Positions 14,646 to 64,000 of a stretch of 64,000 nucleotides of DNA are shown one piece after another. How positions within the stretch are numbered: the first letter of the stretch is position 1; each line of letters starts with the position of its first letter. A program made the translations under genes and the position numbers. The stretch comes from Giardia intestinalis (taxonomy: Eukaryota), in NCBI GenBank assembly GCA_000002435.2, contig CM018792.1. One strand, given 5' to 3'. Under the pieces are notes generated by a model, which was given only the letters and a program-made list of their open reading frames with translations, did not search any database and was not told the DNA's origin.

Positions 14646-14685
14646 CCGCCCGTCTGTAAACTAGCCGGCCTTAAAAATCGCGGCC

Positions 14686-15945: not shown

Positions 15946-15960
15946 ATGGTGCCCGCGGGC

Positions 15961-16248
15961 TCAGTAGTAGTAGACGGCATACAGGTTGGCGATGCAGATG
16001 ATGTCGTCGTTCTGGTACACGTGGCGGAGCTCCGCGTCGGCGTCGGCGTCGAAGTAGCACTTGTTCTCGCTCCGGATGCCTTGGCCCTTCTGGCCGATGA
16101 TGGTCACGGAGACGCAGATCTTGAACCTGCTGTCCGAGATGAGCCGCACCTTGGCCCGGATCTCGTCTGCGAGCTCCTTGGACACCTTGGCGCAGTCCTC
16201 GGAGTCGTACTGCCGCCCGCGCAGCCGCCTCTCCACGATCTGCTTCAT
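15961..16248 (-). CDS. DYNLT: Tctex-1 family dynein light chain (DYNLT-like), 95 aa from the first ATG. The 5' end is uncertain.
   Basis: The C-terminal sequence ...FKICVSVTIIGQKGQGIRSENKCYFDADADAELRHVYQNDDIICIANLYAVYYY* matches the Tctex-1 signature (V.IGQ.G.G....SRCLWD...D......Y.N...FCV...FGVY). The ORF track starts at a GTG at 16302; the first in-frame ATG is at 16248..16246 (MKQIVERRL...). The stop TGA is at 15961..15963, 15 bp from the IFT52 stop on the opposite strand (convergent genes). Confidence 0.75.
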   Translation of the reverse strand: MKQIVERRLRGRQYDSEDCAKVSKELADEIRAKVRLISDSRFKICVSVTIIGQKGQGIRSENKCYFDADADAELRHVYQNDDIICIANLYAVYYY

Positions 16249-36973: not shown

Positions 36974-39900
36974 ATGAGCAACTCGGCAGATGCCGCAGAG
37001 TCGATGCTTGCTCCATCTGCTCTTGGCCTGGGCTATTTAGAGGCGGGGAGCTCTACAAAGCGGTTGGCATCAATAATAGTGGAAACACTTCTATCAGACT
37101 ACTCGGCAGTAATTCTTAACTCCTTTTCACAGCTACGAGACAGTATTCACAACAGGCCTCTCTACATCATGATGGAACCATCTCTTGGCTGTGACCCCAT
37201 GCATGACCATGAGGCTCCAAAGGATGTGTCACCTCTTTTTGGCTCATACATCGACCGTGCGGAATCTCAAATCCTTACTTTGCCCACCTCTATTTTGAAG
37301 CTCAAACTGGAGGAGCAAATAGTCCAGTTACTCAAAGAGCTGTCGAGTGAAAATGCAGATTTGCAAAGACAACTAGACAATGTCAGATCTTTACTAACAG
37401 ATAGCCATGTGCAGGTAAGCAATAAGGACAGCCTCATGTCCTCGATCCTAAAATCGAAGTCAGATGAAAAGGTGCGTCTTCTGAGTGAGATTCAGCTCTT
37501 GCGCGAACAGCTCTATCAGAAGCGTATTCACGGAGGGGTTAACATATACAAGCCTGACTTTGGGCATACAGAAGGAGGACACGGAGACGCAGATGAGCGT
37601 GACGCTCGAGAGTTCTGGAATTTGCGGCTGAAGGACAAAGACGACGAGATTCTTCAGCTCAATAAACAGATTGTATCTCTGAAGGAAGAGGTGTCGGTTC
37701 TCAAGGGGTTCACAAAAGATTCCATGGACGAGGCAGAGAGACATAGACTTGAGGCATTGAGCAAAAGTAAGGCAAGCGTGAGTCTAGAGGACGAGAATGC
37801 TTTGTTGAAGAGGGATCTCGAGGAACTTCAGATGCGGTATCAGACAGATATGAACGCTGCTACAACGTCAATCGAGGCTTTGCGCACAGAGAATACAACC
37901 CTGAGTAAAGCAGCAGAAGAGCAAGAGGCAGACGCAAGCACCATGCGACATAAGATGGAGACCTTAGAGTCAAAGGCTCTGGTACTTGAGGCACAATTGA
38001 CAGAAGCTAAACAGCGGCATATGCAGGATACCGAGGTACTTCGTAGAGAGCTTGAAAGAGCTAACGCTGCAGCTACATCTGCTAAGGATGATTTAAAGAA
38101 GCACGCTATTATGACTGATCGATTGAAGGCGGAACTGGAGATGCTTATGAAAGAGAATGGAGAGAACTCCCTTGTCAGCGGTCTCAAGGATCAGATTGAA
38201 AAACAGCGGAAAGACATCTCGAAATTAGTGAGTGACATTAAAATCTATCGTGGCAAGCTCGCCCATGCCAACAACAAGATAGCAAAACTTACGGGGCGGC
38301 CAGTTCCTCAAAGGAAAGCACTTAATTCGGACGATTCAAACGACTTTACTGACGACGATCTATATGAAACCGAAGGCCATGGTGATACCGATAACCTGTA
38401 TGGTAGATCTACTCAAGATACCACTATAGAAGAAACTATAGAGTGTACATCTACTAGGTCCAGCTTGAGTAGTGCTCAATTAGAGAGGGCAGAAAATTCA
38501 AAGAAATCGGATGTGGACAAAATGGCGGCCTTAATTGGTAAGTATAGAGAGATAGTTTGTTGCTTAGCACGACTCCCAGATGCAAAGTTACCAAAAACAC
38601 TTGCTGGCCTATCTAAATTTCTTTCTAGTCGCATGAAGAAAGCAGATACTGCCAATATGGGTGGGGCGTTCGACCCTGCCAACGATTCTGACTCCGATTC
38701 TCATCCCAGGAAGAAGGAAAGAACAGCTAAGGCAAAGCAAGGAAAGAGTGGTAAAGGTATCAAGGGACCTAAGCTAGGAGGTAATGGAAAATCGGCTAGT
38801 GGGGGTAAGGGAGAGGTAGCGGTTAAGCGTAAAGGTACCGATAAGAATGTGACTCCAGCAAAGGCTTCTGGAAGCAAGAAGGAGCACACTGAAAACAGCG
38901 ACAGTGACTCTTATTATTACAGCTATAGCATAAGCTCAAATGACACCTATCTTCTTGAGGACAAGATAGATGACGACTTCTTTGGAGTAGGTGGCGATCC
39001 AAATGCAATGGTCCGCCGAGGTGACGTTGAGGAATACGTCTCTATGAAAATTCAGGCTGCTCTAGAGAACTTTAGAATGGAGTATGATAATGAGGCCGAG
39101 CTTCAGGCCATGGGGATTGCACATATGACAGCAAAGGCGATACTAGAGAACTATTCCCACAGATCTTGTCAGACATATGTAAGCTACCTCACAGATACAA
39201 TGCGGATACTTACAGACGCGGATATCATTGACGAGAATGATGGTCTATACCTTGATGATGCTGGAAATTGGCGGCGCATTGGCGACGTTGCTGTAAAGAG
39301 TGGCCTGCAACCTAAAGACATAGAGCTAAACCGACGGCGCTTGGATCTGTTTAATCACACGTCTATGACAAATCTTCCGCTGGCGGACCCCAATCATCCA
39401 CTGCACCGCAGAGATGCACAGTTGGCTATGACAGCCGCTGACAAGGTAATGAATCTACAAGCCACTGGAGCGAACTATCGCCTTCACCATAACTTAAAAG
39501 GAGAAGGCTTAACAACAGACCAAATCTTTGATCAACTCTACAACGACACTCAGCGAATGCGCCTTGAGGCCAATACGCGTCGTGAAAAGATGGACTCCAC
39601 CTCATTACAACAGCTAAAGCTACGCGAAACTCCCAGCCCCTACAGAGAAGTTGCTCAGGCAGACCATAAGATTGGTCTCTTTGGCTCTCTAATTGTCAAA
39701 GCATCAGTTGTGCCAGAAAATGCTACATCGCCATCACCTGCCCCTTTAAATGTTCAGCTAGATAAGAAAACTCCTGGTGCGCCATCTGCCGCGGCTGTTC
39801 CTTCAAAGAGCAACACTGCGACGAAATCAGGGGAGAGAGTAATTCAAACAATCAACAATGTGCTTGGTATGAATGTTGCCTCAGTCAAGGTGGATCATCC

Positions 39901-43471: not shown

Positions 43472-43586
43472 TAGCGACGATCTATCTCTCTTTAGTCAGG
43501 TGCTTGTAAACAGGCGTCTTTTTATCGTGTTTGTCTAACATTATCGTCTATACTTTGCAGATGCAACCCTGCCAAAAATTAAAACG

Positions 43587-45080
43587 ATGTCGCTGGCAAC
43601 TAACATAACTCCTACCCCCAAGATACACCCGCTTCCATGCTACAGCAGTATTTCTTCCATTAATGGTCCTATTGTTGTTGTGGACAAGGTGCAGAGACAG
43701 TGCTATGGGGAAATCGTGACGCTCCGTCTTGGAAACGGTGAAATCAGGACTGGGAAGGTTTTGGAGTGCCATGGGTCACAAGCTGTCCTGCAGGTTTTTG
43801 AAGGAACAGAGGGCCTTGACATTAAGCAGACATCTGCAAAGTTCACTGGAGAGGTCATGAAAGTTGGTGTCAGCCGTGCACTCTTGGGACGTACCCTCTC
43901 TGGATCCGGCGAAATCATCGATGGAGGTGCCCCTGTTCTTGCAGAAGAGATCCGGGACATTGAGGGGTCCTCTCTTAACCCCGTTAGTCGTGAATACCCG
44001 AAGAACTGCCTTGAGACAGGGATATCAACAATCGATATCCTTACCAGTATTTGCCAAGGTCAGAAGATCCTTCTCCTGAGCGGAAGCGGTTTACCTTACA
44101 ATCCCCTGCTCGCGCAAATCGCTAGAAACGCCCGCGTCTGTGTCTCGTGGGAGAAGGCTGTAACAGGTGAGGAGATAAAAACTTCCGAGGATGACAAGTT
44201 CATGATCGTCTTCGCAGGAATCGGTCTTTCTCATGAGCAGGCCATGTTTTTCAAGACGCAGTTTGAACAGACTGGCGCTCTTAATCGTTCGGTAATACTC
44301 CTTAATTTGGCTTCTGACCCCGTTGTACAGCGCATCAGCACACCAAGGATTGCTGTGACAATTGCAGAGTACTTTGCATATACTCTGGGGTATCACGTCC
44401 TTGTTCTTCTTTCGGATATCTTTAATTATGCGGACGCACTCCGCCAGATATCCTCTGCCAGAAACGAGGTACCCGGCAGAAAGGGATATCCACCGTATCT
44501 TTACTCTGACCTTTCGACAATTTACGAAAGAGCCGGACGCGTCCATGGGATCAAGGGGTCGATTACGCAGATCCCGCTAATCACTCTTCCAAACGATGAT
44601 ATCACACATATCATTGCAGATCTGTCAGCGTTCATTACAGAGGGCCAGATCTTTCAGGACCGCAAGTTGTTCAACAAGAACATCATCCCTGCGGTGGACC
44701 CCCTCCCCAGCCTTTCTCGTCTGCAGAAATCCGCTATAGGTAAGGGGAGAACCCGCGAAGACCACCCTGACGTAGCTAATCAGCTATATGCATCATACGC
44801 TATCGCAGTTGAGGTTTTAAGCCTTAAGTCCATCGTCGGTTCTGAAGGTCTCAGTGACAACGACCATAAGTATCTGAAGTTCTTGGAGGTCTTTGAGGAG
44901 CAGTTTCTGAAACAGGACTTCAACACCAGACGATCTATTTACGAGTCTCTCGACCTAGCTTGGAAGTGTCTGCGTGTTTTACCGATCAATCTGCTGAGCC
45001 GTATCTCGGATAGTATCCTTGAGAAGTACTATTACGTGCAGACTGACGCCGCTGAGCAGCCAGGAGCTAAGACTAAGTGA
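43587..45080 (+). CDS. ATP6V1B: V-type H+-ATPase subunit B (497 aa)
   Basis: The ATG at 43587 is preceded by gccaaaaattaaaacgATG. Diagnostic stretches include [85 protein letters not shown] and [53 protein letters not shown]. These are near-identical to eukaryotic V-ATPase B ([24 protein letters not shown]...[32 protein letters not shown]). The stop TGA is at 45078..45080. Confidence 0.95.
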   Translation: [497 protein letters not shown]

Positions 45081-45867
45081 ATCTTTGATCGCTTTCATTG
45101 CTTGTAGAAGATGCTAATACGAAAAAGCGGATAGGATAAAGATTGCTCGGCCAAGTTGGTTGCTCATCTATGGTCAGCACCGTCAAACCTGCTTGAGAAC
45201 AGAGGTCCTTTATCATATCAAGGCTACGGATTAAATTGATGTCTTCTTTATCCAAGAAGAAACCATCGTTAATGATGCAATTTTCTTTCATGATGATTCT
45301 ACCGGTTGATGGAGTTAGAAGATGATCCTTGGCAAATTTGAGGAACCTCACGACATCGCGGTCCACTAAGTGACCAATCACCCACTGGAGAAACACAACA
45401 TCGTAATTAATTCCGCGAAATTGCTGTTGTAAGGCTTCTATATCCTGCAGCTCCAAGTTGTAACGCGCTCTGATACTATTTCTGGCAAAATTCGTTGTCG
45501 ATGCTTGGACAAACAGCTCACAGCCTTCGATCATGTCAACATGCTGAAAGACGGGCTTCAAGGCATAGTGAGATACACGGCCTATACCTCCTCCGCAGTC
45601 GAGACAGGTGTTCGTTTTGATGGCCTTGTCTGAAGCCAACTGTTTGAGTCTTAGTGTGGTCCACTCAACCTCATCCTTGTGAACATAGGAGAGCCCTCCA
45701 AGCATACCGTCAATGGTGGGCTCCACAAGGGACGAGTACCACGTGGAGCAGGAGCCATACCACGCTGAGGTGCCCATCATGTTGATAATCTGGCGGTACT
45801 CTAGCTCTTCGCGGTCAGAAGTCACACCAATCACGTTCCCAAAAGCATCTAAGGGCTCGTCAGTCAT
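45073..45867 (-). CDS. NTMT1: Protein N-terminal (X-Pro-Lys) methyltransferase NTMT1/METTL11A-like, 264 aa
   Basis: The ATG at 45867..45865 is preceded by ccaattaaagtATG. The protein contains WYSSLVEPTIDGMLGGLSYV, TNTCLDCGGGIGRVSHYALKPVFQHVDMIEGCELFVQA and YDVVFLQWVIGHLVDRDVVRFLKFAKDHLLTPSTGRIIMKEN. They align with human NTMT1 (YW..IPPTVDGMLGGYGHIS..., [28 protein letters not shown]..., [40 protein letters not shown]). The stop TAG (45073..45075) overlaps the 3' end of the V-ATPase B gene by 8 nt. Confidence 0.9.
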   Translation of the reverse strand: MTDEPLDAFGNVIGVTSDREELEYRQIINMMGTSAWYGSCSTWYSSLVEPTIDGMLGGLSYVHKDEVEWTTLRLKQLASDKAIKTNTCLDCGGGIGRVSHYALKPVFQHVDMIEGCELFVQASTTNFARNSIRARYNLELQDIEALQQQFRGINYDVVFLQWVIGHLVDRDVVRFLKFAKDHLLTPSTGRIIMKENCIINDGFFLDKEDINLIRSLDMIKDLCSQAGLTVLTIDEQPTWPSNLYPIRFFVLASSTSNESDQRFT

Positions 45868-45916
45868 ACTTTAATTGGAGAGTAAGAAAAACGCCTGGGC
45901 ACTCGTTCACTTACCG

Positions 45917-46411
45917 TTAATACTTGTACTTTTTCCTTTCTTTATAGCTTGATTGAGAGCCAGTAGCTCGAGTGGTTGCCTCTTGCATGTCTGTCAAATG
46001 CATCATGGGCTTTATGACAACTGACCAGAATCCATATGAGATAGACACCGGGATAAGCAAGTCGGCCCAGTAGATCTTGACTGTGATGGGTGATAACGTG
46101 AAGACCAGTAAAACAACGTAGAGTATGTCAAATGCAACATTGATTATTGTTCCAGAAAGCTCCGAGCCGCCATCGATCAGACGCCCCGTAGAATCGTATT
46201 TTTCTCGTGACAGATGCCGAAACATCTGATAGATGACTATCGCAAGACTATAGTGGACCATTGATACGCTAACTGAGGTTGCTGTGGCGTTTTCCCTATA
46301 GATGTACACAAGAAGCAAGTACACAGCAAGAGACCCTAGTAGTGCTACACGCACAGTCGTGAGGATCCTGCTATTCTTTCTCAGAGTCTTCTTGGCAGAG
46401 TCATTGGCCAT
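45917..46411 (-). CDS. Hypothetical small multipass membrane protein (3-4 predicted transmembrane helices), about 164 aa
   Basis: The ORF track starts at a TTG (46450); the first ATG is at 46411..46409 (MANDSAKKTLRKNSRILTTVRVALLGSLAVYLLLVYIY...), preceded by cttacctcttaaaaATG. That ATG lies 11 nt inside the 3' end of the upstream same-strand gene (46401..48788). There are several hydrophobic helices. The stop TAA is at 45917..45919. Confidence 0.5.
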   Translation of the reverse strand: MANDSAKKTLRKNSRILTTVRVALLGSLAVYLLLVYIYRENATATSVSVSMVHYSLAIVIYQMFRHLSREKYDSTGRLIDGGSELSGTIINVAFDILYVVLLVFTLSPITVKIYWADLLIPVSISYGFWSVVIKPMMHLTDMQEATTRATGSQSSYKERKKYKY

Positions 46412-48788
46412 TTTTAAGAGGTAAGGATTTAACAGGCTTAGACTCAACAACTGCCTCCACTATGCCAGTTGTATTAAATTGTGGAAGTGGCCGCTTACTG
46501 ATCAGCTTAGATGCTGAAGTATTAGATCGTTGTATGTGCTCAATGGTATGAATTGGAGAGCGCGCAGAGAGGAAATTGTTACTTCGCCTCGGTGAAAGCC
46601 TTTCGTTTGGGCTATTTGGTAAGTGCCTAAAACTTTTCCCAGCAGACATGACACCATGGGACTTAGGTGCGCTGGAAGAGCTACGTATGAGAGGACGTCG
46701 AGGTGATGCTGAGGAAAGGAGAGCGCCTGAGGCTGCTCTTCTAGTAGATGGGGTATATGACGAAATAGTCCGTGCAGATGTCTTAGTTGGCCGAACTATT
46801 GAAGGCTCGTAAAGCATGCTGCTGTATTGAACTTTCTCAATGTGAATGTCACTTAAAGTATCATCAGAGTCTTCACAGTTGGGGTTTTCATAGTTGTATT
46901 CGTTATATGGTGTCCTTGCTTGCGAGAGAGCGTAGTTCTCAAAGATATTTTTCTTCAATACCCGGCGAACCTTTTGCATATATAGAATAGGATTGGTTCG
47001 GATTGATTCAGGGTAAAATGAATATGACTCACAGTCAGATATTTCACCAGAACACTGTATAGCTTTTGATTGGCAGGACGTAATGTCTGAGTGCGAACCT
47101 ACCCATCTTTTGGCAAATAGGTTTAGTGCTAAATCAATATTTTGCCACAGTTGCTCCGCTGTGAACAGGCCACCACTTAGTGTTTGAACAGCTTTATCGC
47201 TTACGTCAACTGACTGCCGGGAATGTGGACGTAGGCTGGTGGTAGGATCTTTGCTGACACCGCAACTTGTCATCAGAGGAGTCTTTCCTTCGCTTACAGT
47301 CTCACAAGCCACAGCAAAGGAAGAACTGTCCTCAGACTCGCAGGAAGAGAGTTTCTGATCACAAAGGTCATCCAAGGGCGTAGGAGCAGGCCTCTCAAAC
47401 AAGGTATCTTCCTTTACCGGTGAATGTATTCTCATAGAAAGCTCCCGCATGGTATGTGGTATCAGTGGAGAGAGAAGGGATGCACGGGTTAGAATATTAC
47501 TCGAAGGTGGAGGGTTGCTATGCAGTAAAGTAAACTCCCCAGCACTCCGGCAGTCAGGAACATAAGAGGATGCATCAAGCTGCAACGGAGGTACAGAGGA
47601 CCGTTCAAGAGGTTGCTCAAGGGATTGCCGATCTTCTACACATTGTGGGCTGCTATCAGGTTTGAAGCCCTTACTGGATGATAACGTAGCTAGGCCCATA
47701 TTGCTAGGCTTTATAGATTGTCGCTCAGTTTGCCACTTGCGTAAAATAGGACTAGAGAACTTGAAGATGGGTGGCACACACGATTGCCTTTTAGAATCCA
47801 GGAAACCGTCTCGCTCGTTTGCGCTGTGCTGAAGCTGTATCTCGGTCTCAGGTTTGCTCTCAGGTGACATTTTACCGAGATCTTGTACGCCACGAGGTGT
47901 GCTCATCAGTCCCAGTATCATGCTAGTGCTTCCGATAAAATCTTGGTCGGTGCTACAGGCAACGCTGTCGACGTGCTCGGAGCCAGCTGAAGTGGGATAA
48001 GGCCGGGTTGTGTGAACATCTGATGACTGCCTGGAGAAAGATCGTGTCAGGATACTGCGTGTTCGTGCCTTTGCTTCAGTTAGTTGATTGCTTAGGAGTT
48101 GCATCTTGCTCTTTAGAGCGGCAATGGTTACATTCTTGCTTTCGATTTCTCGCTGGAACTGCTCATTCTCCCTACCTTGTGCTAAAAGGGACGTATCTCT
48201 TAGTAACGTATAGTCAGCATCATAACTCTGAGAGGCTGTGTTCGATCTAGCATACCCACTGATAATATTGTTAAGCTCATGGATCTTCAACTGACTGCGC
48301 TTAGTCGACGTGGCCTTCTCTACTAGGATGGCCTGAAGAATTTCAGTTAGCTCGCCAATTCGGCGTGTCAGCGAGTAAATCTGTCTGCTCATTTTGTCAT
48401 GCTGGAGCTCCAGGTGGTCACGGACCTTAATGTACTCAAGAAGGTGGTCTCTGATCCCATCTTGCAATCGGGCCCGCATGTCTTTCATTCCGCGGTCCAT
48501 GATCATAAGCTCCGCTGTATCGATAGAGGCACTATAAATGGGGTATACATCTTTTGGTGCTTCGTGGTCTGTCTTTGGGTCGCAGGCCAACAGCTGCTCA
48601 AACATGACGTACAGCTTTCTGTTATGGATCTCGGCTCTTAAGTAGGAAAATGCTTGCCCGACGCTACTTGCTAGGGCCGTAGTCAACTGACCACTGATTC
48701 GCTCGGCCAGCATCTGAACAGAACTATCATGTGTCCTTGCACCTGCAGGAGACAAGGCCAGACCAAGCTCAGATGCTGTCAGCGGCAT
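46401..48788 (-). CDS. Hypothetical coiled-coil protein (795 aa), paralog-family member B
   Basis: The ATG at 48788..48786 is preceded by ccctaaaaagactATG. The N-terminal block ...FSYLRAEIHNRKLYVMFEQLLACDPKTDHEAPKDVYPIYSASIDTAEL... is homologous to members A, C and D. It is followed by a coiled coil and a Ser/Pro-rich C-terminal half. The stop TGA is at 46401..46403. Confidence 0.75.
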   Translation of the reverse strand: MPLTASELGLALSPAGARTHDSSVQMLAERISGQLTTALASSVGQAFSYLRAEIHNRKLYVMFEQLLACDPKTDHEAPKDVYPIYSASIDTAELMIMDRGMKDMRARLQDGIRDHLLEYIKVRDHLELQHDKMSRQIYSLTRRIGELTEILQAILVEKATSTKRSQLKIHELNNIISGYARSNTASQSYDADYTLLRDTSLLAQGRENEQFQREIESKNVTIAALKSKMQLLSNQLTEAKARTRSILTRSFSRQSSDVHTTRPYPTSAGSEHVDSVACSTDQDFIGSTSMILGLMSTPRGVQDLGKMSPESKPETEIQLQHSANERDGFLDSKRQSCVPPIFKFSSPILRKWQTERQSIKPSNMGLATLSSSKGFKPDSSPQCVEDRQSLEQPLERSSVPPLQLDASSYVPDCRSAGEFTLLHSNPPPSSNILTRASLLSPLIPHTMRELSMRIHSPVKEDTLFERPAPTPLDDLCDQKLSSCESEDSSSFAVACETVSEGKTPLMTSCGVSKDPTTSLRPHSRQSVDVSDKAVQTLSGGLFTAEQLWQNIDLALNLFAKRWVGSHSDITSCQSKAIQCSGEISDCESYSFYPESIRTNPILYMQKVRRVLKKNIFENYALSQARTPYNEYNYENPNCEDSDDTLSDIHIEKVQYSSMLYEPSIVRPTKTSARTISSYTPSTRRAASGALLSSASPRRPLIRSSSSAPKSHGVMSAGKSFRHLPNSPNERLSPRRSNNFLSARSPIHTIEHIQRSNTSASKLISKRPLPQFNTTGIVEAVVESKPVKSLPLKNGQ

Positions 48789-48895
48789 AGTCTTTTTAGG
48801 GATCCGACATTCATAAAGGCGTCAGGTCATAGAGCAAAGGAGTGATAATTCACAAGTGTATTTGACTGTGAGCAAATGCTTATATAAAGCAAGCA

Positions 48896-49435
48896 TTAGA
48901 TTCCACGGTCAAAACCGACAGAGGTCGTCATCACAATCCCGCTGATGAGACCGATAAGTGCAATCGCCTCCGCAAAAATTTCTGAAATAAAGAGCTTGAC
49001 GAAAAGCGACGAGTCGCCGCAGTGGGAGACAGCAACAGAGCTCCCCAGAACACCCACGGTGATTGCAGCAGCAAAGTTAGAAAACCCAACAGAGAGACCA
49101 GCAGCCCCATAGCCATACCCAGCTTTCAGGACTTCTTGCTTAGTAACATAATCTCTGGTAAGAGACCTCTCAGCTCCCTCCTTAATGGCAGTAAGTATTA
49201 TAATCGACATGATGACGCCGTAAAGAGCAATAGCCTCGCAAAACAGGATAGACAGAAGGTTCTTGGATCGTATTTCAGGGTGCGCAACCGTGGACGTCAC
49301 CAAGGTGGCACCAGTGTTGAAGATCCCGATGGCAGAGCCCAGGATGGAGAAGCCAAGGACAACATAGATCCCCATTTCTGCAAAAAAGTACGGGGAAAGA
49401 AGCTCAAGAGCCTCCTGGAGCGCTTCTAACGTCAT
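48896..49435 (-). CDS. ATP6V0C: V-type H+-ATPase proteolipid (16-kDa c) subunit, about 179 aa
   Basis: The ORF track starts at a TTG (49477); the first ATG is at 49435..49433 (MTLEALQEALELLSPYFFAEMGIYVVLGFSILGSAIGIFNTGATLVTSTVAHPEIRSKNLLSILFCEAIALYGVIMSII...). Four transmembrane helices are apparent. The conserved proton-binding Glu lies in helix 4 (FISEIFAEAIALIGLISGIVM, compare [20 protein letters not shown]). The upstream sequence is gaagcaaagataaagacccaaATG. The stop TAA is at 48896..48898. Confidence 0.85.
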   Translation of the reverse strand: MTLEALQEALELLSPYFFAEMGIYVVLGFSILGSAIGIFNTGATLVTSTVAHPEIRSKNLLSILFCEAIALYGVIMSIIILTAIKEGAERSLTRDYVTKQEVLKAGYGYGAAGLSVGFSNFAAAITVGVLGSSVAVSHCGDSSLFVKLFISEIFAEAIALIGLISGIVMTTSVGFDRGI

Positions 49436-49530
49436 TTGGGTCTTTATCTTTGCTTCATCTTTGGCATTTATTTTCAATTGCTAATGGCCAGATTTTGAAA
49501 AGCCACAAAGGATTTGCTCGGCTTCCCTGC

Positions 49531-52500: not shown

Positions 52501-55500
52501 AGAACGCCCAGGGATTGGACCGTAAAGGGTGTCTTTGCCCGTCTCTATCAAAATGCAGAAGAAATCCGAGCACGACTCAATATGAAACGGGCGGAGCATC
52601 AGAAGCGAGAGGCTCTTCTTTATGCAAAGTATCTTCGTAGTCAGAATTCCATTCTAAAGGACGACGGTCTTCTGGTGGCAGCGTCGGAGTATGATAACGT
52701 GTCCAAACGATACGCCCAAGAGGCACAAAAGTGGAACGACGAGGTAAAGAAGTTATCTGCATACGACAGTAAGCAAGAAGATTTTAGTAAGACCCCTCAG
52801 CTTTCTGGCTCTAACGTTAGGGGAGAAGATGCGCTTATGAAGACAGGAAAAATGACCACTGCGGACCTAATCGAGGAGGTTAATTCACGCTCATCTAAAG
52901 AGCACTTGATCAGGATCACTTCTGTATCAACTAAGTCGCCAGACATGGACGATATAATAGTTAACACGTCTGGCATCAGGAGTGCACCACGAGGTCTCAT
53001 GGGGAAGCAGCGGGACAGGATAACAACGGTATTTGACATGGAGGGGTCATCGATTCGGGGAACACCTAGAAGTTCTATGACTGGCTCTTCGTACAGAAAC
53101 TTAAACAACACACCGAGAGAAAGCATCAGTGGCTCCCAAGATGCATATGTGACGGGAACACCAGGTGCTCCCAAGAATATGTTTAGTACTCTCAATACTG
53201 GTGGAAGGAAGCTACCAGGGATGCAGCTTACCATAAAGGATCACTCTACACACCACTCACTTAAGCAGCAAGGACCTGGCCAGATAGCATATGGAGCAGA
53301 ATTAGTGACTATGAACTTATCAAATGGTTATAGTGGCTCTAAGGGTAGCAAGCCCATTCTGATAGCATCCGGAAACAGTGGAAACCCGCTTCCTTATATC
53401 AGTAAAAAGAGCAACACAGACACGCCAGGATCCACAGTCGTGGATGCTTTCCACGAATCCGATATTAAGCTGACTCAAAGTATTGATAACTCTAACGTAT
53501 CTATCGCACCAGTAAGTAGTAGTACAAGCTGCGAGCCAAGCACAAACTTATTAAAATCTGGCAAAATTCTACAACCGCTTACTTCAACTCCTGAGCACAT
53601 CCGACCGTTCTCTGGAAAAGGTTTTGGGAGTGGGAAAATAGTTTATGACCAGTACGGAAAACCCATGCCAGCACAAGAGATACAAGATATTATCGCATAC
53701 AAGTACATATTCGGGAACGCCTCTATGCTTAAGGTTAAAGATATGGGGCGACGCCTTCTCGTCTCTGTGCCAGATAGCTCGCAATTGATAGAGGTATCTA
53801 AGGAGACGCTGCGCACGATCAAGGAGAATGTAGACAAGCTGGTGGAATACTTTAAGGTGCCAGGGATATCAAATTTGTATGGAAATGATGTCGTGGGACG
53901 CGCAACTAGCGCAAAAAGAGATTCCAATTCTGCTAAGTTAAATACTCTACCTAGAGATCCGCCTATTGATGATAGACTGGATTGTCCAGCTGTTTCTATC
54001 AATAGAGATGCTTTATCGACTACGGATGAATTAGTGCAGGAAGAGAAGAGAGCTCTGCTAGAGTTTGACAGACCCGACTTATCTGCTATCCCTGGTACAC
54101 CGATTGCTCTTCAGACAGACGTAACCAGGTCTGCATCTGTATTAAATATTGAGCCAGACCCACAGCAATCCTTTACTGATAAGGAGAACGTTGATACTGA
54201 TTTTCTTATTCCTTCAACGATAGCCTCGAGCGCGATGAAGAAAGACAGGTACGGGGTTGAAAAAGAGTTAGAAGATAACTTGGCGACAGTGCTCAGAAAA
54301 AGCGTAGAGGCGCTAGAAAGTTTCACGCCTCCACTGCGATTATCAGAAGACCAAGATTTAAGCAAGCAACGCAAAGGCAAAGAGCTAGTCTTATCTGATC
54401 TTGATCTTCAAATAGCCAGTATTAAGGATCCGTATGCAGAAAAGATAAACCATCTAGACGAGGAAGGAAGCATCACTCCGAATAGCCTAGAGTATGGACT
54501 CAGTGTCGTTGAGGTGACACCAAACACAGAATTTAACCAGCAACGTGAAGAAACTATCACCCTTAACAGCTTTCGAGGCAAACATAGCGATCGCACTAAG
54601 TATCGGAGAGAGAGTAGCAACTGCATATCCGATGATGGCTCAATAGACCTCACCAGTCATAGCAGCGGTCAAAATCAAATAGACGATCGTTCTACTCATT
54701 TCGAGGATCTAGTCGAAAACGCACTTGAAGATCCAACAAAACAAGCGTCTCAAATAAGAGTTAGCACCACTGTAATAGCATCAACAGAATCACTCAACGC
54801 TAATCAGGTGACTGCACCAGAACCCAGTTCAGCATATACACAAGGTAATACCATACGGAGAAGCATCGTTAGGGGAATAGAAGTAGCAGACAGTGCCGTA
54901 TCAACACACTCAACAAGGACCAACACCCCATCTCAGGGTATGCTATCATTAGATGAACAGATTTCTCTACGACTGGCCGATCAAAGCCGTACAGCGACCG
55001 CTATTAACATAGAGTCCCCGCTTTCTGGCTATGAGAGGGACAGTATCAATCGGATGGACCCCGGTGCTATTCCAGAGTTTCTGACTGGAACAACATCCAT
55101 ACATATAGGTGGACGTCGGCTCTCAGATGACGACCGCCATAGTTTAGAAGGTACTCTTAGCATTCCTGGACCGGGTGAATTAGACCGATATGATACTGCC
55201 CATTCGGGATATGAACACCATAGGCTGCCATCATATAATCCACAGGATTCCAATTTTGTGGCTTCTTCTTTACATATGAAGGCAAAGCCAGGCGCTATTA
55301 ACCATATAAATACTTTTATCCAATTTGAGAATCCACAGGCTCGTGCAGGAACACAACACGCCGTTACAACTTCATTAAATAGCGACGATCCGCACGCTTT
55401 TGGGGATACCAGCGAGAAAACGACTTCATCTCCGAATGTGGCAGGAGCTGTGCGTCATACGGTTGTCCAAAAGCAGTCATCTACTTCCAAGCATGGTTTT

Positions 55501-55809
55501 GTACCAAACAACTATCTTATTGGAAAGATACTGCCGCAGGAGCCTTTTATTAAAGGCCCGTCAGGACCCATTAATATGGGAGAACCAGGTCTTTTAGCCA
55601 GCGCAAGTGAGTCGCTAGTTATCAGAAAACGCTCAGCCGAAATCTCTGGAGCGAAGGAACCGACCACAAGCGGCGGTCAAAATGCAGATTCCGACACGCC
55701 AAGTCAATCGAATATCTTTTCTCAGCCAAAGCTGTACATGAGTAGATTGCATCAAGATCTTAAAAAGGCTCGCGATGCTGATGGAAGTTCGCTATTTGGT
55801 AAGAAATAA
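49531..55809 (+). CDS. Giant hypothetical protein (about 2092 aa from the first ATG), paralog-family member C. It has the conserved N-terminal domain, about 250 aa of coiled coil and a very long low-complexity tail.
   Basis: The ORF track starts at a TTG (49450); the first ATG is at 49531 (MEDSATFQTG...). The N-terminal block ...LRTDIQSRKLYVLFEQALGCDPMTDHLAAKDVLPIYAPYIDKAEK... and the later motif NIYKPDF are shared with member A. A long heptad region (ELEKLRLHCKSLLDENIRISSQWQQEREKLLQQ...; ELNQRIEELLRRIAEQDDTIVEQQKEIADLLDQLASLKKAYDGL) follows. The stop TAA is at 55807..55809. Confidence 0.8.
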   Translation: MEDSATFQTGIGYDQDTLFGGESTSQPSGVEFFIRSSVSPANPIRLVDAGDISADERRASIYAYLDKDFREHTSNLVTSLNGYMTQMISGLFQELRTDIQSRKLYVLFEQALGCDPMTDHLAAKDVLPIYAPYIDKAEKTFRRLTLHKFKHDIETEFCAAIISELRARLKIEDTNMNISTELEKLRLHCKSLLDENIRISSQWQQEREKLLQQIGTLSEQLVQKKRAGNIYKPDFMASGSSWDAEAPVPDFTRVPSKGVKELLELETKLANEAAEKERLKMELDATSMKYQHLLEQCKQIPELQNQIDELNQRIEELLRRIAEQDDTIVEQQKEIADLLDQLASLKKAYDGLDSDHLALQNTVDTLNMEKGESAAENEKLKRQIADLLKRVAAAEAERDRYKQQITKGDSDRNISLVDINNNTVKSARLPGSPDDAGFDNRTLLSVKQLLYELTGFNLLGHQDGFTEAYVGDKGLPQDGESRTRFSCPTPGKESKPTLPDMGPRTGSRALSRKGTPKSTAMKEDPASIRVRLQGQRPSVGSIEAALVAATTSSPWNAARSISGRRSSKNVVSERIDTDGVSRNTEVTPCRGSRYKFIDTGLNPAYFNPGVENPYDNVVSGFYKDRDICLSKLTDRLGIEHAQLRTVRDLVGRFFSGDPVYAELLRLLAEGSISPDLVAKILAGMHTGELQAFLEDLLKVDENGNLVRNGDKQYIAGRGVVEDEPLSSEAASLSDYTQSKKSRGERYLRNGAQRQPDDQGPREDYDGVPLALPLPRGSDNYNKLKPDIDSHRSVASNLDELSAGGTETLPSGLLGFWKQTQTILGMDDMEELMALRELMLDKGTNTDASKKNKKGGYSSVSRSSSTRNLYGSDGHVSKDDGSTDPSSARGIPPDILKDKQIATYIDERLQIERERVRDEVTAEQELDNIEKIKVAVEVAANTMDFWCQVNYDDSESDDYGTKKGGAVMQKVQNAIDRFSKPGKPGFQIKYDRTPRDWTVKGVFARLYQNAEEIRARLNMKRAEHQKREALLYAKYLRSQNSILKDDGLLVAASEYDNVSKRYAQEAQKWNDEVKKLSAYDSKQEDFSKTPQLSGSNVRGEDALMKTGKMTTADLIEEVNSRSSKEHLIRITSVSTKSPDMDDIIVNTSGIRSAPRGLMGKQRDRITTVFDMEGSSIRGTPRSSMTGSSYRNLNNTPRESISGSQDAYVTGTPGAPKNMFSTLNTGGRKLPGMQLTIKDHSTHHSLKQQGPGQIAYGAELVTMNLSNGYSGSKGSKPILIASGNSGNPLPYISKKSNTDTPGSTVVDAFHESDIKLTQSIDNSNVSIAPVSSSTSCEPSTNLLKSGKILQPLTSTPEHIRPFSGKGFGSGKIVYDQYGKPMPAQEIQDIIAYKYIFGNASMLKVKDMGRRLLVSVPDSSQLIEVSKETLRTIKENVDKLVEYFKVPGISNLYGNDVVGRATSAKRDSNSAKLNTLPRDPPIDDRLDCPAVSINRDALSTTDELVQEEKRALLEFDRPDLSAIPGTPIALQTDVTRSASVLNIEPDPQQSFTDKENVDTDFLIPSTIASSAMKKDRYGVEKELEDNLATVLRKSVEALESFTPPLRLSEDQDLSKQRKGKELVLSDLDLQIASIKDPYAEKINHLDEEGSITPNSLEYGLSVVEVTPNTEFNQQREETITLNSFRGKHSDRTKYRRESSNCISDDGSIDLTSHSSGQNQIDDRSTHFEDLVENALEDPTKQASQIRVSTTVIASTESLNANQVTAPEPSSAYTQGNTIRRSIVRGIEVADSAVSTHSTRTNTPSQGMLSLDEQISLRLADQSRTATAINIESPLSGYERDSINRMDPGAIPEFLTGTTSIHIGGRRLSDDDRHSLEGTLSIPGPGELDRYDTAHSGYEHHRLPSYNPQDSNFVASSLHMKAKPGAINHINTFIQFENPQARAGTQHAVTTSLNSDDPHAFGDTSEKTTSSPNVAGAVRHTVVQKQSSTSKHGFVPNNYLIGKILPQEPFIKGPSGPINMGEPGLLASASESLVIRKRSAEISGAKEPTTSGGQNADSDTPSQSNIFSQPKLYMSRLHQDLKKARDADGSSLFGKK

Positions 55810-55830
55810 ATAGAGGACATACCAGAGACT

Positions 55831-58449
55831 CTAAACCACAGGTTGTCTAAGTGGGGCAAGAGTCTGAACGGAAAGCCGTACCATCCGTAATGCAATTTGC
55901 TGCTCGGGAGTCACTAGAGATTCTTCATCATCATTGGACATTATCCTAGTTGTGATCTTCTTTAGTACCTGAGATAGTATTGTTATAAATATCTCATAAA
56001 TCTTATCATTAGTGACCATTATTAATTCTGTAAGAGATGATACCAATGCGCGCTGGCTCACCTTATCAGCAACTACCCTCACTAGTGTCAAGATGACAGG
56101 AAGAAGGCAACTTGTCTCGATCTCTCCAGTGAATTCTTTTATAGTTTGTAAGAGAGTTTGTACAGAAGATACGAGGTTCTCAAAACTGCGCTTGTCAAAA
56201 TAGTCTCCTACTGCTTTGGTCAAGTCAAGAAGGGCAGAAATTAGGATACATCCGCCAGAGTACTCATCCGAGGTAGACCTGTCAACGTCGTGAAGAACGG
56301 GGGCCAAAAATAATGCAGCTGTACCTACAAACGGAAACATCACAGCAGGATACACACACAACAACAGTAATGTTAAAAGAGAATGATCGTACGGACGCAC
56401 AAGGAAAGAGCCAAAGCTTGTAGCATAAGACTCTCGAAGAAATTCTTCTACAGCGGCAGGCGTTTCATGAACAAGTTCTCCTGACTCAAATAAGTCAATA
56501 TCTGACAGTGCAATAGAAGCCAGCTGTGTACAGGGAGTATCATACCAGCCAATGCCGAATAGTTGCGCAAGAGAGTACGAAAGGGTTATCTGGTCTTTAA
56601 GCTCCGTGGAACTGGCGCCTATGTAGCTTGCGATGAGATCTAGCATAGAGTCAACTGAACTGAATGGTCCCACTAGTTCTGCACTCATCGTATTGAGGGA
56701 GCGGGGTGACAAATCCAGAGTAGAAAGGCTTAGGTTAGCTGTGGAAAGGTGTAACGGAGTATCTTGCGGCCCTCCTGTCAATGAGATATTAACCACTGAA
56801 TTTGAGCGCTGCTTCATCTCAGGATGGTTTCTAACGATAGCCTCTACAACTACTTCATCTCGGTCCCTGTCTGCTACCACAGCGGGGATGAACTCAGCAG
56901 TTGAACGACGAGGTGGTGATATTGCAGGGCACTCAACAGAAACATGAGGGGAAGTACCTATACTGTACGTAGAAGATGCAAATACCTGGACTTCTTTGTC
57001 TGTAAAGGTTGTAGCTAAAATCCGTTGTTGTTCAGGGTGACGATCAGTAAGACAACAGGATATGGCCTTGTCAACGAGGTTCATGCATTCATAAGTTGGT
57101 TTGCGCACAAGTGTGCTGGAAGATTGGGGAAGCAAGAGTGACCCGTTCAAGGAAGAAGCTGCGTCACAACCTTGCAAGCAGCCAGCTTTCTCAGAGATAA
57201 AAGCTTGTAGCTTGGCTGTCTTTTCCATTTCTTTGTTAAGTTGCATGGTGACATTGTCCAACTCATGGACTACAAAGTCGTGGCTTTGCATCAATTTTGA
57301 GTTCAGTTCTCGTAAATTTGCCAACTCATCTTGGGCTGTACTAAGTGTGAGGATAGTGCTGGCTTGTAGTGTTCGGTGAGCTGGCCCGTCTCCGCCAGAC
57401 TCAGATTGATCAAGGCAGATAGAAGGCTCTGTTTGGGCAGTCTGTGTCGATGAATCGTTGGTTAGTGAGGGCTCATTTGAGAGACCAGCAGCCAGATGTA
57501 GATAGTAGTCTAAGCCAGGCATAGATACAGCGGTTTCATTAGCATCAGTAGCTAAGTGGGGTGTCTTTACTTCTGCTTTGGGCTTGAGCCGCTTCTTGAG
57601 TCTTCTTTTTGATGGCTTTATGGTCTTAACTGGTGAGGATTCTGTACATGGAAGTGCAAGAGGAGTATGCGACGTGCTTGGGCGGAGAATATCAACTAAT
57701 TTTTCTCGAACCTCAGCGCTCTTTAGGGACGTGCACATCGAATTTAAGGCCGCGTTATAAGGAAATAGAGAGAGGATCTTGTTCAAATCGCAAAAGTTAC
57801 GGTGCTTTAGCGCAAGTAGTAGAGATAGAAGCTCATCATACTCAGATACAGAAACAGTTTCCGGTGTCAGTCCGAGTTTTGCAAGAAACTCTCGGGCAGA
57901 TTGCCTTTCTATGTGAGTAGATTTATGGTTTGTAGAGGCCTTTCCTCGATGTCCATGCCCATGTGCTCTATCTTTTTGTGCTTGAGGGGTGCTTTTTTTA
58001 TTGATGGGCTGTCTACTCGGTGTTCCAAGTGCACTGTACGATAGAAAAGAGCGATCCACCTTACCAATATGGGCTGAGTCGCGTTGAAACCTGACCATAA
58101 TATCGGAGTCTCGCTGGTACTGACGTTTGGGCGCCAGTACTGGTGTTGTCATACGGCCATGCTTCGCCGATCCCTGAGAATTATTATGCAAGCGTGTTTG
58201 TAAAGAACTCGACCTAGATTCGGGTGTTGAACAAACTTCGTAAGCGTCCTGAGACGTCGCTGATAAGTAAACATCTGCAATAAGATCTGCACGGTGAGGT
58301 GATGAAACAACTGGTGTCCTGCCAGCAGAAAGTGCAAGGGCAGAGTTGTAGGCTTCGGTGCTGAGATCCAATGCACCAGAGCTTATTATCTGTTTGATTG
58401 CTTCCTGGTATGCGGCATCAATGGAAATATCCAGGTTTTGAGGATACAT
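55831..58449 (-). CDS. Hypothetical protein, 872 aa
   Basis: The ATG is at 58449..58447. The ORF runs ATG to stop, and AT-rich sequence (aaataaagcaaaagcaacc) lies about 25 nt upstream. The stop TAG is at 55831..55833, 21 bp from the stop of family member C (convergent genes). No recognisable domain. Confidence 0.6.
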   Translation of the reverse strand: MYPQNLDISIDAAYQEAIKQIISSGALDLSTEAYNSALALSAGRTPVVSSPHRADLIADVYLSATSQDAYEVCSTPESRSSSLQTRLHNNSQGSAKHGRMTTPVLAPKRQYQRDSDIMVRFQRDSAHIGKVDRSFLSYSALGTPSRQPINKKSTPQAQKDRAHGHGHRGKASTNHKSTHIERQSAREFLAKLGLTPETVSVSEYDELLSLLLALKHRNFCDLNKILSLFPYNAALNSMCTSLKSAEVREKLVDILRPSTSHTPLALPCTESSPVKTIKPSKRRLKKRLKPKAEVKTPHLATDANETAVSMPGLDYYLHLAAGLSNEPSLTNDSSTQTAQTEPSICLDQSESGGDGPAHRTLQASTILTLSTAQDELANLRELNSKLMQSHDFVVHELDNVTMQLNKEMEKTAKLQAFISEKAGCLQGCDAASSLNGSLLLPQSSSTLVRKPTYECMNLVDKAISCCLTDRHPEQQRILATTFTDKEVQVFASSTYSIGTSPHVSVECPAISPPRRSTAEFIPAVVADRDRDEVVVEAIVRNHPEMKQRSNSVVNISLTGGPQDTPLHLSTANLSLSTLDLSPRSLNTMSAELVGPFSSVDSMLDLIASYIGASSTELKDQITLSYSLAQLFGIGWYDTPCTQLASIALSDIDLFESGELVHETPAAVEEFLRESYATSFGSFLVRPYDHSLLTLLLLCVYPAVMFPFVGTAALFLAPVLHDVDRSTSDEYSGGCILISALLDLTKAVGDYFDKRSFENLVSSVQTLLQTIKEFTGEIETSCLLPVILTLVRVVADKVSQRALVSSLTELIMVTNDKIYEIFITILSQVLKKITTRIMSNDDEESLVTPEQQIALRMVRLSVQTLAPLRQPVV

Positions 58450-58552
58450 TAAGGCGTTGTTGATTGGGCTGGTTGCTTTTGCTTTATTTGCGTTTGTGCA
58501 AAGCCATAATGTATTAAAAGCTTAGGCATTAGAAACAGATTTTGGCAGCTCA

Positions 58553-61500
58553 ATGATGGCAACAGATCCTCTGGGCCTTGACATGGCCGAACTGGGGATT
58601 GTCATTAACCACGGCGACTTGCAAGATGTGCATTCAGGTTGCCTTAAGTATACCCCAGAGGCCTTGGCCCTCGTGAACGAACTGACCGCTAACATTGCCA
58701 CCATCCTCACAGACTCCATCACAGCGGTATTTACTACACTCAAAGATCGCATACACGAACGTCCGCTCTATGTCCTTTTCGAGCCTCAACTAGGTTGTGA
58801 TCCTCTTACGGATCATCAGACCCCAAAAGATGTATATCCAGTATTCAGTGAAGCAATCTCATCGGCAGAAAAAAGGCTGAGCGAGACATCTATTGTAATG
58901 ATAGCGGATGAGCTGCGAGCAAAGATTGTCACCATGTTGAATTTAGAAGTTAGTAAGACCAACGCCCTTAAAGCACAGGCAGAGGATGCCCTTGGAGAGC
59001 TAGCTACTCTGAAAGCTAAGCTACTCATGAAGGACAAGTTCATTCAGCAGATCATGCAGTCCAAATCCGAAGACCATAGCAAGTTCATATCAGAAATAAC
59101 CGTTCTCAGAGAGCAAGCCTTTATGAAGCGGCGCTTTGGAGATAGGTACAAGCCAGATAATATTGACAAAGCAGCAGATGATGGCCAGCAGCAAGGCCTC
59201 GGCGGATCCCTTTTGGGGAGCACAGGAGAGTTCGCTGTAGGCCAAGGAAACCAGGCTAACAAGCTGATTCGTGACCAGCTAGCAGCTACAGTAGCAGAGA
59301 ATAAAGAGCTGAAGCTTAAGCTGGAGGCAACAGGGCTTGCACACAAAAAAGTAGAGGAGCTGGAGGAGGAGTGCACCGCACTAAGGCTCAACATTCAAAA
59401 CTTGGAGTCATCTCACACAGAAACAATAGCCAAACTTGAAAGCAGTCTCAAGGAAAAGAATTTGCTCATATCAACCTATCAGGACAATGAACGGGCACTC
59501 AATACATCTGTTCAAGAGCTTACAAAGCAACTGCGCTCGTTGGAGAAAAGGCGGCCCACTTCTTCAGATATTACTTCTCGTACAGACACAGATTTATTTA
59601 GAGAAAATACTGAGCTAAAATCTAGAGTCTTTGAACTGCAAGAGCAGCTCATGACTAATCAGCTAGAGAAAAAGCAGGACCCTACAGAAGATGCGAGCCT
59701 AGCAGAGACTCTTTCCAATCTACAGAAGGAGCTTCAAGAGAAAACTGCTGAGGCAAGCCTTTATAGGCAAAAGCTAGAAGAGGCTGGCCTTTTGAACGCA
59801 CCGGTTGACGCATTTATCAAGCTCGCTGATCATAATACGGCTGTGGCTGCATTCACCTCTCAGATTGACGAGCTTGAGGCTCAGAACCAGGCTCTCGTAG
59901 AGCTCTCAGAAAAACTTCAACGTCAAGTAGATCAGCTTATAGAAAATGAAGCCGCCGAGATAAATAATGTCCTTGAGGCTAACGAAATCTTACACAAGCA
60001 GAAGCTGAAAAACGCAGTTGAGGCTGCCGTTTGTATCGACAGTTTCAACGAGTCTATTCAGGCAGCCAAGCGAGCTATCACAAACTTTGATGACTTCGGG
60101 TGTCAGGTCCCAGATAAGCGCGCTCGTAAAAGTGCTCTACGATCTGGCGAAGGGGATGACCTGGATGTGCAGGATGATGAGGGCTGTAAAGAAGACGCTG
60201 AAGCATCTCGCATTCGTCGCGCCATTGATGCAGCTAGGAAAATATATGCCAGCCGTCTTCCCGCGATGAACGAGCCTACATTGTCCTATGACGTGAGCAG
60301 TGTTGACGAGGTCTTTAAACAGTTATTCGACACGGCAAAGACAGCCAAGACGCAGCTCATGAAAAAGCATCACGAGACGCTGAAAAATGAAGCGCAAACA
60401 CTGATGAGAAACTTAAACCTTCATGATCGCATTGCCCGTACAATTTCACATTATACTAACTTTGTTGACCAACCAGCTAAGGACCCGTTGAAACTACTGT
60501 CTAAAGAGCAGCTACGCGATGTGCTCTGCGAGAATATAGACGTAGGCCCCTTTGACGACTCGTCTCCTGAACAGGATGAGATGTTAGCTAGACTGCCTGA
60601 TGCATCACATGAGATGCAAGACGAAGCTTCGAATAGAGACTCAGCTGTAAAGGAACCTCATGACTCGCCTCCTGCAAAACCTGATGGTCCCGCTCCTAGA
60701 AGTCGTAAGCGCCGTGCCTCTCCTTCTAAGGTTAGGGGCGGCAGATCTACCCTTTCCACACCAATCTCTTCCACTACAAGACCAGCAACCCGAAAGAGCG
60801 GAACTACACTGAGCGGTACAACAACCTCACGTGCTTCTGAGTTAGAAGAGCTCGACGGCGAAAAGGACTTTTTTCGTGCCTCAGTCCCAGACAGCCCCGT
60901 CAGAGAGACCTTCAGCGTACGAACCCCAGCATCTCGAGGTATAGAGAGCGATAGAGATTCAGACGACCAGGTGGCTTATGCGCTAGCAGACAACGGTAAG
61001 CGTATAGCGCCCATGAAACACGTTCGTGTACCACGTTTGAAAAGTAGTGGACGAGGCCCAAGGCTATTAATTCGACTATTAAAAGACAAACTCACTGGAG
61101 AAATCCGCGATGAACTGGGAAGGCTGGTATCTTCAGAAAACCTATATATGTACGGGTATTGCCTGGACATTAGAGGCGACCTAGTCTACTATGGTGATTG
61201 CAGTGTCAATAAAAAGGCTTCAGATGACCCAGATACCATTGTACGGAGATTTCTGGCCGGTGACGAAGGTGAGTTGCTACTGCCTAACGGACAGCGCATT
61301 TTCCGAGAGGATGCACTGCGCTTTGGATATAAGGGTCCTGCACGTAATGGAACTTACATTTTCATTGGCCAACCTCTTGACCTATATGATCAGGTTATGC
61401 GACTATCACCGGATGGTGTTTCTGCTATGGTGACTAAGATCTTAGGACAAGATATAGAATATGACGATATCATTGCTGACTTTACCTTCAAGCTGGATTT

Positions 61501-64000: not shown

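Follow-up and report, generated by a model that had tools for sequence, protein, structure and literature searches.

About 40% of the Giardia proteome is uncharacterized, and much of this organism's unusual cytoskeleton consists of lineage-specific coiled-coil proteins. HPSR2, GASP-180 and the median body protein are large, lineage-specific, coiled-coil diplomonad proteins, as are the proteins reported here; they carry P-loop, ankyrin or other heads, and none of them is known to have the hairpin motif described below. Among the closest known systems are also prefoldin-type α-hairpins and the Rad50 zinc hook, a CxxC motif situated mid-way along the greatly extended antiparallel coiled coil by which the two halves of an ABC ATPase are connected. 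Here we analyze a 64,000-nucleotide stretch of Giardia intestinalis WB DNA (contig CM018792.1 of assembly GCA_000002435.2, hereafter the window) in which four genes, A to D, encode proteins with a common N-terminal block, the head, followed by a coil and a tail. We propose that they belong to an undescribed family of rod-and-tail scaffold proteins with a hairpin head, so far seen only in diplomonads, and we give this proposal as a whole about an even chance of being correct.

The head resembles the Rad50 hook in that a conserved Cys-containing loop tips an antiparallel helical pair on a long coil and offers a possible point for head-to-head joining, whereas it differs in having one Cys and one His, in being an N-terminal hairpin with a first helix of ~34 residues and in the lack of an ATPase. 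The hairpins of Mis12/MIND subunits, Ame1–Okp1 and Cep63–Cep152 are returned by a fold search with the head model at E ≥ 2.7, in the noise range; these kinetochore and centrosome hairpins have no conserved apex-loop motif, and we claim no homology with them. SMC proteins share the long coil only, as the family has neither the N- and C-terminal ATPase halves nor the hinge. On present evidence, the finding is an undescribed domain family inside the well-known class of head–rod–tail scaffolds and not a categorically new system.

Four paralogues share an N-terminal block

The boundaries of the four open reading frames (ORFs) proposed in a first-pass annotation, made from the letters of the window, are correct, and the translations of A, B and C match G. 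intestinalis WB proteins exactly (over 36974-43468 on the plus strand, 46404-48788 on the minus strand and 49531-55806 on the plus strand, respectively). Gene A (36974-43471, plus strand) encodes a 2165-residue protein, KAE8304341.1 (GL50803_12217, hypothetical), which comprises a head, a coil and a tail of ~1700 residues. Gene B (46401-48788, minus strand) encodes the 795-residue KAE8304345.1 (GL50803_12213, hypothetical), with a head, a short coil and a tail. Gene C (49531-55809, plus strand) corresponds to KAE8304347.1 (named ‘Coiled-coil protein’, formerly GL50803_41258) and encodes 2092 residues when counted from the ATG picked in the first-pass annotation. Gene D (58553 to beyond 64000, plus strand) has the first 1816 of its ~2252 residues inside the window and is 99% identical to a protein of 2252 residues (P0196).

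A block common to the four N-termini had been reported from inspection, and both alignments and profile searches recover it. The four-way N-terminal alignment contains 29 invariant columns, clustered in a single stretch, and positions the block at residues 55-97 of A, 51-93 of B, 96-138 of C and 64-106 of D. A family hidden Markov model (HMM) searched against the six-frame translation of the window yields exactly four matches, with E-values of 7e-34 for A, 8.6e-34 for D, 3.4e-33 for C and 4.5e-33 for B, and a best background match at E = 1.1. The HMM envelopes delimit the heads to residues 27-127 of A (nt 37052-37354, plus strand), spanning a helix, the apex loop and the start of a second helix, to residues 22-123 of B (nt 48420-48725, minus strand), to residues 70-168 of C (nt 49738-50034, plus strand) and to residues 36-136 of D (nt 58658-58960, plus strand). 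Within them, the apex motif is NRPLYIMMEPSLGCDPMHDHEAPKDVSPLF in A (residues 60-89, nt 37151-37240, plus strand), NRKLYVMFEQLLACDPKTDHEAPKDVYPIY in B (residues 56-85, nt 48534-48623, minus strand), SRKLYVLFEQALGCDPMTDHLAAKDVLPIY in C (residues 101-130, nt 49831-49920, plus strand) and ERPLYVLFEPQLGCDPLTDHQTPKDVYPVF in D (residues 69-98, nt 58757-58846, plus strand). All four genes match the core R-P-L-Y-V-x-F-E-x-x-L-x-C-D-P-x-x-D-H-x-x-P-K-D-V-x-P-x-F. The longer pattern initially put forward for the block also fits the four proteins once mended, since the spacer that precedes its I[DS].AE element is of three residues instead of four and A has His in place of Thr.

BLASTP comparisons among the paralogues confine the similarity to the first 130-420 residues. 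Together with the alignment and the HMM matches, this supports the assignment of A, B, C and D as true paralogues. The flanks of the block are helical and heptad-like, so that the shared stretch might be thought a mere compositional likeness between coiled-coil or low-complexity sequences. The core, however, with its abundance of Pro, Gly, Cys, Asp and His, is modeled as a non-helical loop, the profile E-values near 1e-33 stand against 1.1 for the best background match in the window, and the motif is conserved across the Giardia–Spironucleus divergence. The profile statistics, the modeled loop and the deep conservation rule this explanation out, and we consider its probability negligible.

Upstream of the head, the first ~30 residues of A, B and D (nt 36974-37060, 48700-48788 and 58553-58640) contain a motif, [SP]-x-L-G-[LV], whose Gly is followed seven positions later by another; both Gly are invariant in the four-way alignment.

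The head is modeled as a helical hairpin with a rigid apex loop

An AlphaFold2 model of residues 32-153 of D, computed from a 45-sequence family alignment, has a mean predicted local distance difference test score (pLDDT) of 94.9 and a predicted template modeling score of 0.75. In model numbering, a 34-residue helix (5-38) leads into a 26-residue loop (39-64) and then into a second helix (65-121), which reaches the end of the modeled fragment. The apex loop, with pLDDT values of 93-98, comprises one β-bridge and a short 3-10 turn, and the conserved motif maps to this loop and to the ends of both helices. The model thus shows the head as a predicted N-terminal α-helical hairpin with a rigid apex loop, the second helix packing back on the first. 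The question raised at first pass, whether the block is a folded head or part of the coil, is answered by this helix-loop-helix model in favor of a fold.

The motif is strongly conserved across the family. Among 103 representatives, its core reads R-[PK]-[LF]-[YF]-V-[ML]-F-E-x-x-L-x-C-[DN]-P-x-T-D-H-x-x-P-K-[DNS]-V-x-P-[IL]-[FY], with Asp and His present in all 103, Glu in 102, Cys in 101, Leu in 100, Pro in 96 and Lys in 94, counts to which the search pattern itself contributed in part. Independently of that pattern, the 45-sequence alignment has invariant columns at Cys, Asp and His only. Thr replaces the loop Cys in two Spironucleus-type members.

By sequence as by fold, the head matches no Pfam family and no solved structure in the PDB. 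Pfam searches with proteins A to D at E ≤ 1 returned no family except sub-threshold coiled-coil noise, and the 45 heads scanned individually against Pfam revealed no recurring family. Profile searches of all PDB sequences with the head gave nothing credible, and a Foldseek search of the PDB with the head model gave no match better than E = 2.7. These outcomes agree with the early impression that the block is unlike any named domain.

The apex loop might act as a metal-dependent hook, in which one zinc ion would be bound jointly by Cys and His, together with Glu or Asp, from two heads, so that two rods become joined head to head as by the Rad50 hook and build filaments or networks. The invariance of Cys, Asp and His in the 45 sequences, their presence in at least 101 of the 103 representatives and their position in a loop that tips an antiparallel helical pair in the AlphaFold2 model would all fit such a role. 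Each chain, however, supplies a single Cys and a single His, the Cys is dispensed with in the two members that have Thr, the loop is predicted at pLDDT 93-98 without any metal, and Foldseek retrieved no hook-like structure from the PDB. We therefore regard a zinc hook as unlikely.

A second motif follows at a fixed distance

Downstream of the block, several members carry a second motif with the consensus L-[RK]-E-Q-L-x-x-K-x-R-x-G-x-x-Y-[KR]-P-D-[FGY]. In A it is LREQLYQKRIHGGVNIYKPDF (residues 176-196, nt 37499-37561, plus strand), which includes NIYKPDF at residues 190-196; in C it is LSEQLVQKKRAGNIYKPDF (residues 217-235, nt 50179-50235, plus strand), with NIYKPDF at residues 229-235; and in D it is LREQAFMKRRFGDRYKPDN (residues 185-203, nt 59105-59161, plus strand), with the variant RYKPDN at residues 198-203. 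Both strings had been picked out at first pass in these same members. The second helix ends at this motif in A, C, D and many of their relatives, and a linker containing Gly and Pro lies between the motif and the coil.

In A, C, D and two further family proteins (P0010 and P0012), the motif Tyr lies 117-119 residues beyond the loop Cys (119 in A), and this fixed length points to a rigid helical spacer. It also hints that the loop and the YKPDF motif work jointly, perhaps across an antiparallel pair of chains. The motif is carried by A, C and D, by their G. muris orthologues, by the GMRT_14397 group and by some Spironucleus proteins; it is missing from B and from many other members, many Spironucleus ones included. 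It thus appears to define a subfamily, not the whole family.

The family is large and, so far, confined to diplomonads

When 1.84 billion cluster representatives were searched exhaustively with the profile, 120 family clusters, counted at 50% identity, were identified at E ≤ 1e-3, and 72 at E ≤ 1e-10. The exhaustive search was needed, as word-index searches returned five proteins with a 4-sequence profile and two with a 45-sequence profile. Many family members are 1000-2250 residues long and have the block inside their first ~230 residues. The named members among 30 clusters that we looked up are all diplomonads (Giardia, Spironucleus and Hexamita), their sources being G. intestinalis assemblages A, B and E, G. 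muris, Spironucleus salmonicida and Hexamita inflata. G. intestinalis WB encodes a fifth member elsewhere in its genome (GL50803_112784), G. muris has at least six family genes, and S. salmonicida contributes at least 11 distinct clusters. As far as could be seen from these sequences, the family is lineage-specific and has been encountered only in diplomonads. The idea of a lineage-specific family, formulated at first pass on four members, accordingly holds for the named sources, with its membership enlarged to 120 clusters and a fifth WB gene.

Two metagenomic members sit on contigs that read TAA and TAG as sense codons. On the first (L001, 3333-6230), translation with code 6 turns a 115-residue fragment into a 966-codon ORF with 38 in-frame TAA/TAG codons and also recovers a version of the second motif, IAIYKADG; the second (L005, 164-2449) holds a 762-codon ORF with 16 in-frame TAA/TAG codons. 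Both ORFs terminate at TGA or at the contig end. A code in which TAA and TAG are sense codons, for Gln, is that of Hexamitinae. Gene calling with the standard code had split these two members into fragments of 40-120 residues, and splitting of this kind is the probable origin of the numerous short ‘proteins’ within the 120 matches.

This distribution bears on the suggestion, made at first pass, that the proteins could belong to the ventral disc or the median body and hence be parts of Giardia-specific attachment or reserve structures. The genus Giardia contains at least seven orthogroups of the family, and the architecture of the proteins is like that of many disc-associated coiled-coil proteins. 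The family is, however, equally present in Spironucleus and Hexamita and in the contigs that use TAA and TAG for Gln. To our knowledge, Hexamitinae have neither a ventral disc nor a median body, and their membership argues against these structures as the ancestral site. The gene numbers of A, B, C and the fifth WB member are also absent from the main text and some supplements of a 608-protein localization atlas (2026) and from the main text of actin-interactor, basal-body and disc-protein papers. It is therefore improbable that the family as such serves the disc or the median body; single Giardia copies may have been recruited to either structure.

Coils are of limited length and tails are specific to each paralogue

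A crude heptad score delineates coils at residues ~100-460 of A, ~100-260 of B, ~170-430 of C and ~137-520 of D, with values of 0.45-0.78 in the segments that follow the head; behind the heads, the coils span residues ~128-460 of A, ~124-260 of B and ~169-430 of C. These segments have the extended heptad-periodic helix of a generic coiled-coil rod, and weak, sub-threshold Pfam matches to Myosin_tail and Filament accompany them. The coil amounts to 140-380 residues per protein, a minority of each. The earlier description of hundreds of residues of coil behind the block was thus right in that a heptad coil follows the head, but most of what comes after is non-coil tail.

The limited coil is relevant to the database names of the family, as orthologues and paralogues are entered as ‘Chromosome segregation protein SMC’ or ‘Spindle pole protein’, which, if right, would make them SMC or chromosome-segregation ATPases or mitotic spindle pole proteins. 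SMC_N, SMC_hinge and ATPase families are unmatched in A to D in Pfam even at E ≤ 1, Walker-A-like strings occur only as chance matches in the tails of A (residue 585) and B (residue 712), the head is modeled as a 100-residue helical hairpin, and the coil is restricted to the ~140-380 residues after the head, with no SMC hinge. The missing ATPase halves and hinge rule out an SMC identity. As for spindle pole proteins, no Spc110/PACT, CM1 or MPS2 domain is found in A to D apart from a sub-threshold MPS2 match in C, which scores 10.8 bits (E = 0.24) where the cut-off is 28, Pfam detects neither MPS2 nor any other spindle-pole domain in the paralogues P0055, P0033 and P0051, and the literature on ‘spindle pole protein’ concerns other genes or gives no gene identifier. 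The names were apparently carried over automatically on the strength of coiled-coil similarity, and the likelihood that they describe the function is, in our judgment, very slight. The proteins could nevertheless be located at spindle poles or basal bodies.

The tails contain 16-23% Ser plus Thr, compared with 14-15% for the window's housekeeping ORFs, and they are not simple repeats, so that their characterization at first pass as Ser/Thr-rich low-complexity regions was overstated. BLASTP detects no tail-to-tail similarity among the paralogues. By these comparisons, the tails are long, fast-evolving and specific to each paralogue.

The tail of D comprises an array of seven copies of a ~30-residue repeat (residues 855-1286, nt 61115-62410, plus strand) with the consensus x-I-x-x-E-D-A-x-x-x-G-Y-x(4-6)-G-x-Y-x-Y-x-G. 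With a repeat HMM, all seven copies are recovered at matching positions in two D orthologues, P0006 (E = 3.9e-57) and the more remote P0011 (E = 7.7e-17), and the array is kept in D orthologues down to 29% overall identity; the same HMM has no match in A, B or C, elsewhere in the family or in shuffled controls. The D-like repeats that visual inspection had suggested for the A and C tails are thus unsupported. In an AlphaFold2 model of the array, computed from five sequences, each unit folds as a strand, a short helix and a β-hairpin with local pLDDT values of 65-82, and the mean pLDDT of 53.9 corresponds to no confident overall fold; a seven-bladed propeller is neither supported nor excluded by this model.

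The tail of C contains an island (residues ~800-1200, nt ~51930-53130) with 84-93% identity between assemblages A and B and, over residues 900-1100, ~43% identity to G. muris. Pfam returns nothing for this island, which probably forms a folded domain.

In S. salmonicida, residues 770-980 of the family protein SS50377_24285 (P0044) match the Pfam I-TevI DNA-binding domain in several fragments; the 32.6 bits exceed the 27-bit cut-off, yet none of the stretches is significant by itself. The same residues match PQQ_2 weakly. This suggests that its tail holds short β-hairpin repeats.

A proposed role for the head

We propose that the coils dimerize into rods and that the hairpin head would be a common docking or assembly module, by which every member would be attached to the same partner or the members to one another. 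The exposed, conserved polar residues of the apex loop (Glu, Cys, Asp, Asp-His and Lys) would serve this docking, and the tails, such as the seven-repeat array of D and the island of C, could give each paralogue its own cargo or neighbors. As the family is common to Giardia and Hexamitinae, the partner is expected in the general diplomonad plan and not in organelles found in Giardia only; candidates are the basal bodies, the cytoplasmic axonemes and the nucleus-associated microtubule fibers.

Several points weigh against this proposal. The head model is of a monomer, and its scope does not extend to dimerization, to how the loop residues are arranged in space or to a contact of the loop with YKPDF. 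Source names come from 30 of the 120 clusters, and the restriction to diplomonads holds for those. The heptad score that delimits the coils is home-made and not a calibrated coiled-coil predictor, and the second motif, which B does not have, is not universal to the family. In the literature searched, we found no localization, interaction or phenotype for any member, so that the functional part of the proposal is drawn from architecture and our confidence in it is low; the full-text literature mentions neither GL50803_12217, GL50803_12213, GL50803_41258 or GL50803_112784 nor the motif string LGCDP together with Giardia.

The diplomonad karyomastigont is doubled, with two nuclei and eight basal bodies. 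A bolder version, which we think very unlikely, has the Glu/Cys/Asp-His loop as an intermolecular metal or covalent hook that joins the rods of different paralogues head to head; the result would be a diplomonad-specific filament lattice, made of neither tubulin nor actin, that organizes the karyomastigont and whose period is set by the 118-residue spacer.

The docking-head proposal predicts a docking site common to all diplomonads. The compact signature of the head can be searched for, and it unites five or more genes of G. intestinalis, six or more of G. muris and many of Spironucleus and Hexamita, which are now labeled ‘hypothetical’, ‘coiled-coil’, ‘SMC’ or ‘spindle pole’, correcting misleading SMC annotations. 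At ~100 residues, the head also offers a short construct for structural and binding work. Were the head indeed an assembly module, it would provide a handle on the organization of the diplomonad cell plan and, as no relative was detected outside diplomonads among the clusters looked up, could be a parasite-specific target.

The cluster predates the split of G. muris and G. intestinalis

We compared the window from 31817 to 64000 with the corresponding G. muris locus (CM016925.1:2436741-2461267, L008) and found synteny to be kept. The G. muris locus begins with a D-like gene, the orthologue of an 872-residue ORF that lies between C and D in the window (55831-58449, minus strand; no Pfam match), the C orthologue, V-ATPase c and the A orthologue. 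These are followed by a ubiquitin-conjugating enzyme gene, which is extra relative to WB, by V-ATPase B, the methyltransferase and TMEM208, and by the orthologues of the WB ORFs at 35158-36825 and 31817-33745. The A orthologue in G. muris, TNJ30575, is 30% identical to A over 1441 residues. Relative to G. muris, the segment that runs from A to TMEM208 has the opposite orientation in G. intestinalis. The G. muris locus has three heads only and no counterpart of B was found there; in WB, B lies at one boundary of the inversion. B is the shortest and fastest-evolving paralogue, with an inter-assemblage identity of 55%, compared with 68% for D and 76% for C.

The conservation in G. muris of A, C and D with their housekeeping neighbors indicates that the cluster predates the split of the two species and that the duplications are ancient. 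In a neighbor-joining tree of the head and spacer, each orthogroup is recovered with a bootstrap value of 73-100, including one Giardia–Spironucleus orthogroup from outside the window cluster with a value of 100, and the branching order of A, B, C and D is left unsettled. Local duplication, which had been proposed from the proximity of the four genes, is thus plausible for these clustered paralogues as a tandem process, but it is old and unproven.

Neighboring genes and other features of the window

The four genes are interspersed with housekeeping genes. V-ATPase B (43587-45080), an NTMT-type proline methyltransferase (45073-45867, minus strand) and TMEM208/SND2 (45917-46450, minus strand), the last absent from the list of neighbors drawn up at first pass, lie between A and B, and V-ATPase c (48896-49477, minus strand) lies between B and C. 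Gene ends overlap at two places, consistent with a compact genome. V-ATPase B and the methyltransferase share 8 nt in a tail-to-tail arrangement, and TMEM208, if begun at its listed TTG, extends 50 nt into the 3' end of B, so that its true start is probably an internal ATG.

At a distance from the cluster, positions 10001-16000 have a G+C content of 62-71%, against 44-51% elsewhere in the window, and carry long ORFs on both strands. This stretch was considered as ribosomal DNA and rejected, as Rfam identifies no RNA gene in it. It contains instead a VSP gene (9872-12466, minus strand), a TPR-containing ORF (13158-14645, plus strand) and, within sequence of ~70% G+C, IFT52 (14686-15945, plus strand).

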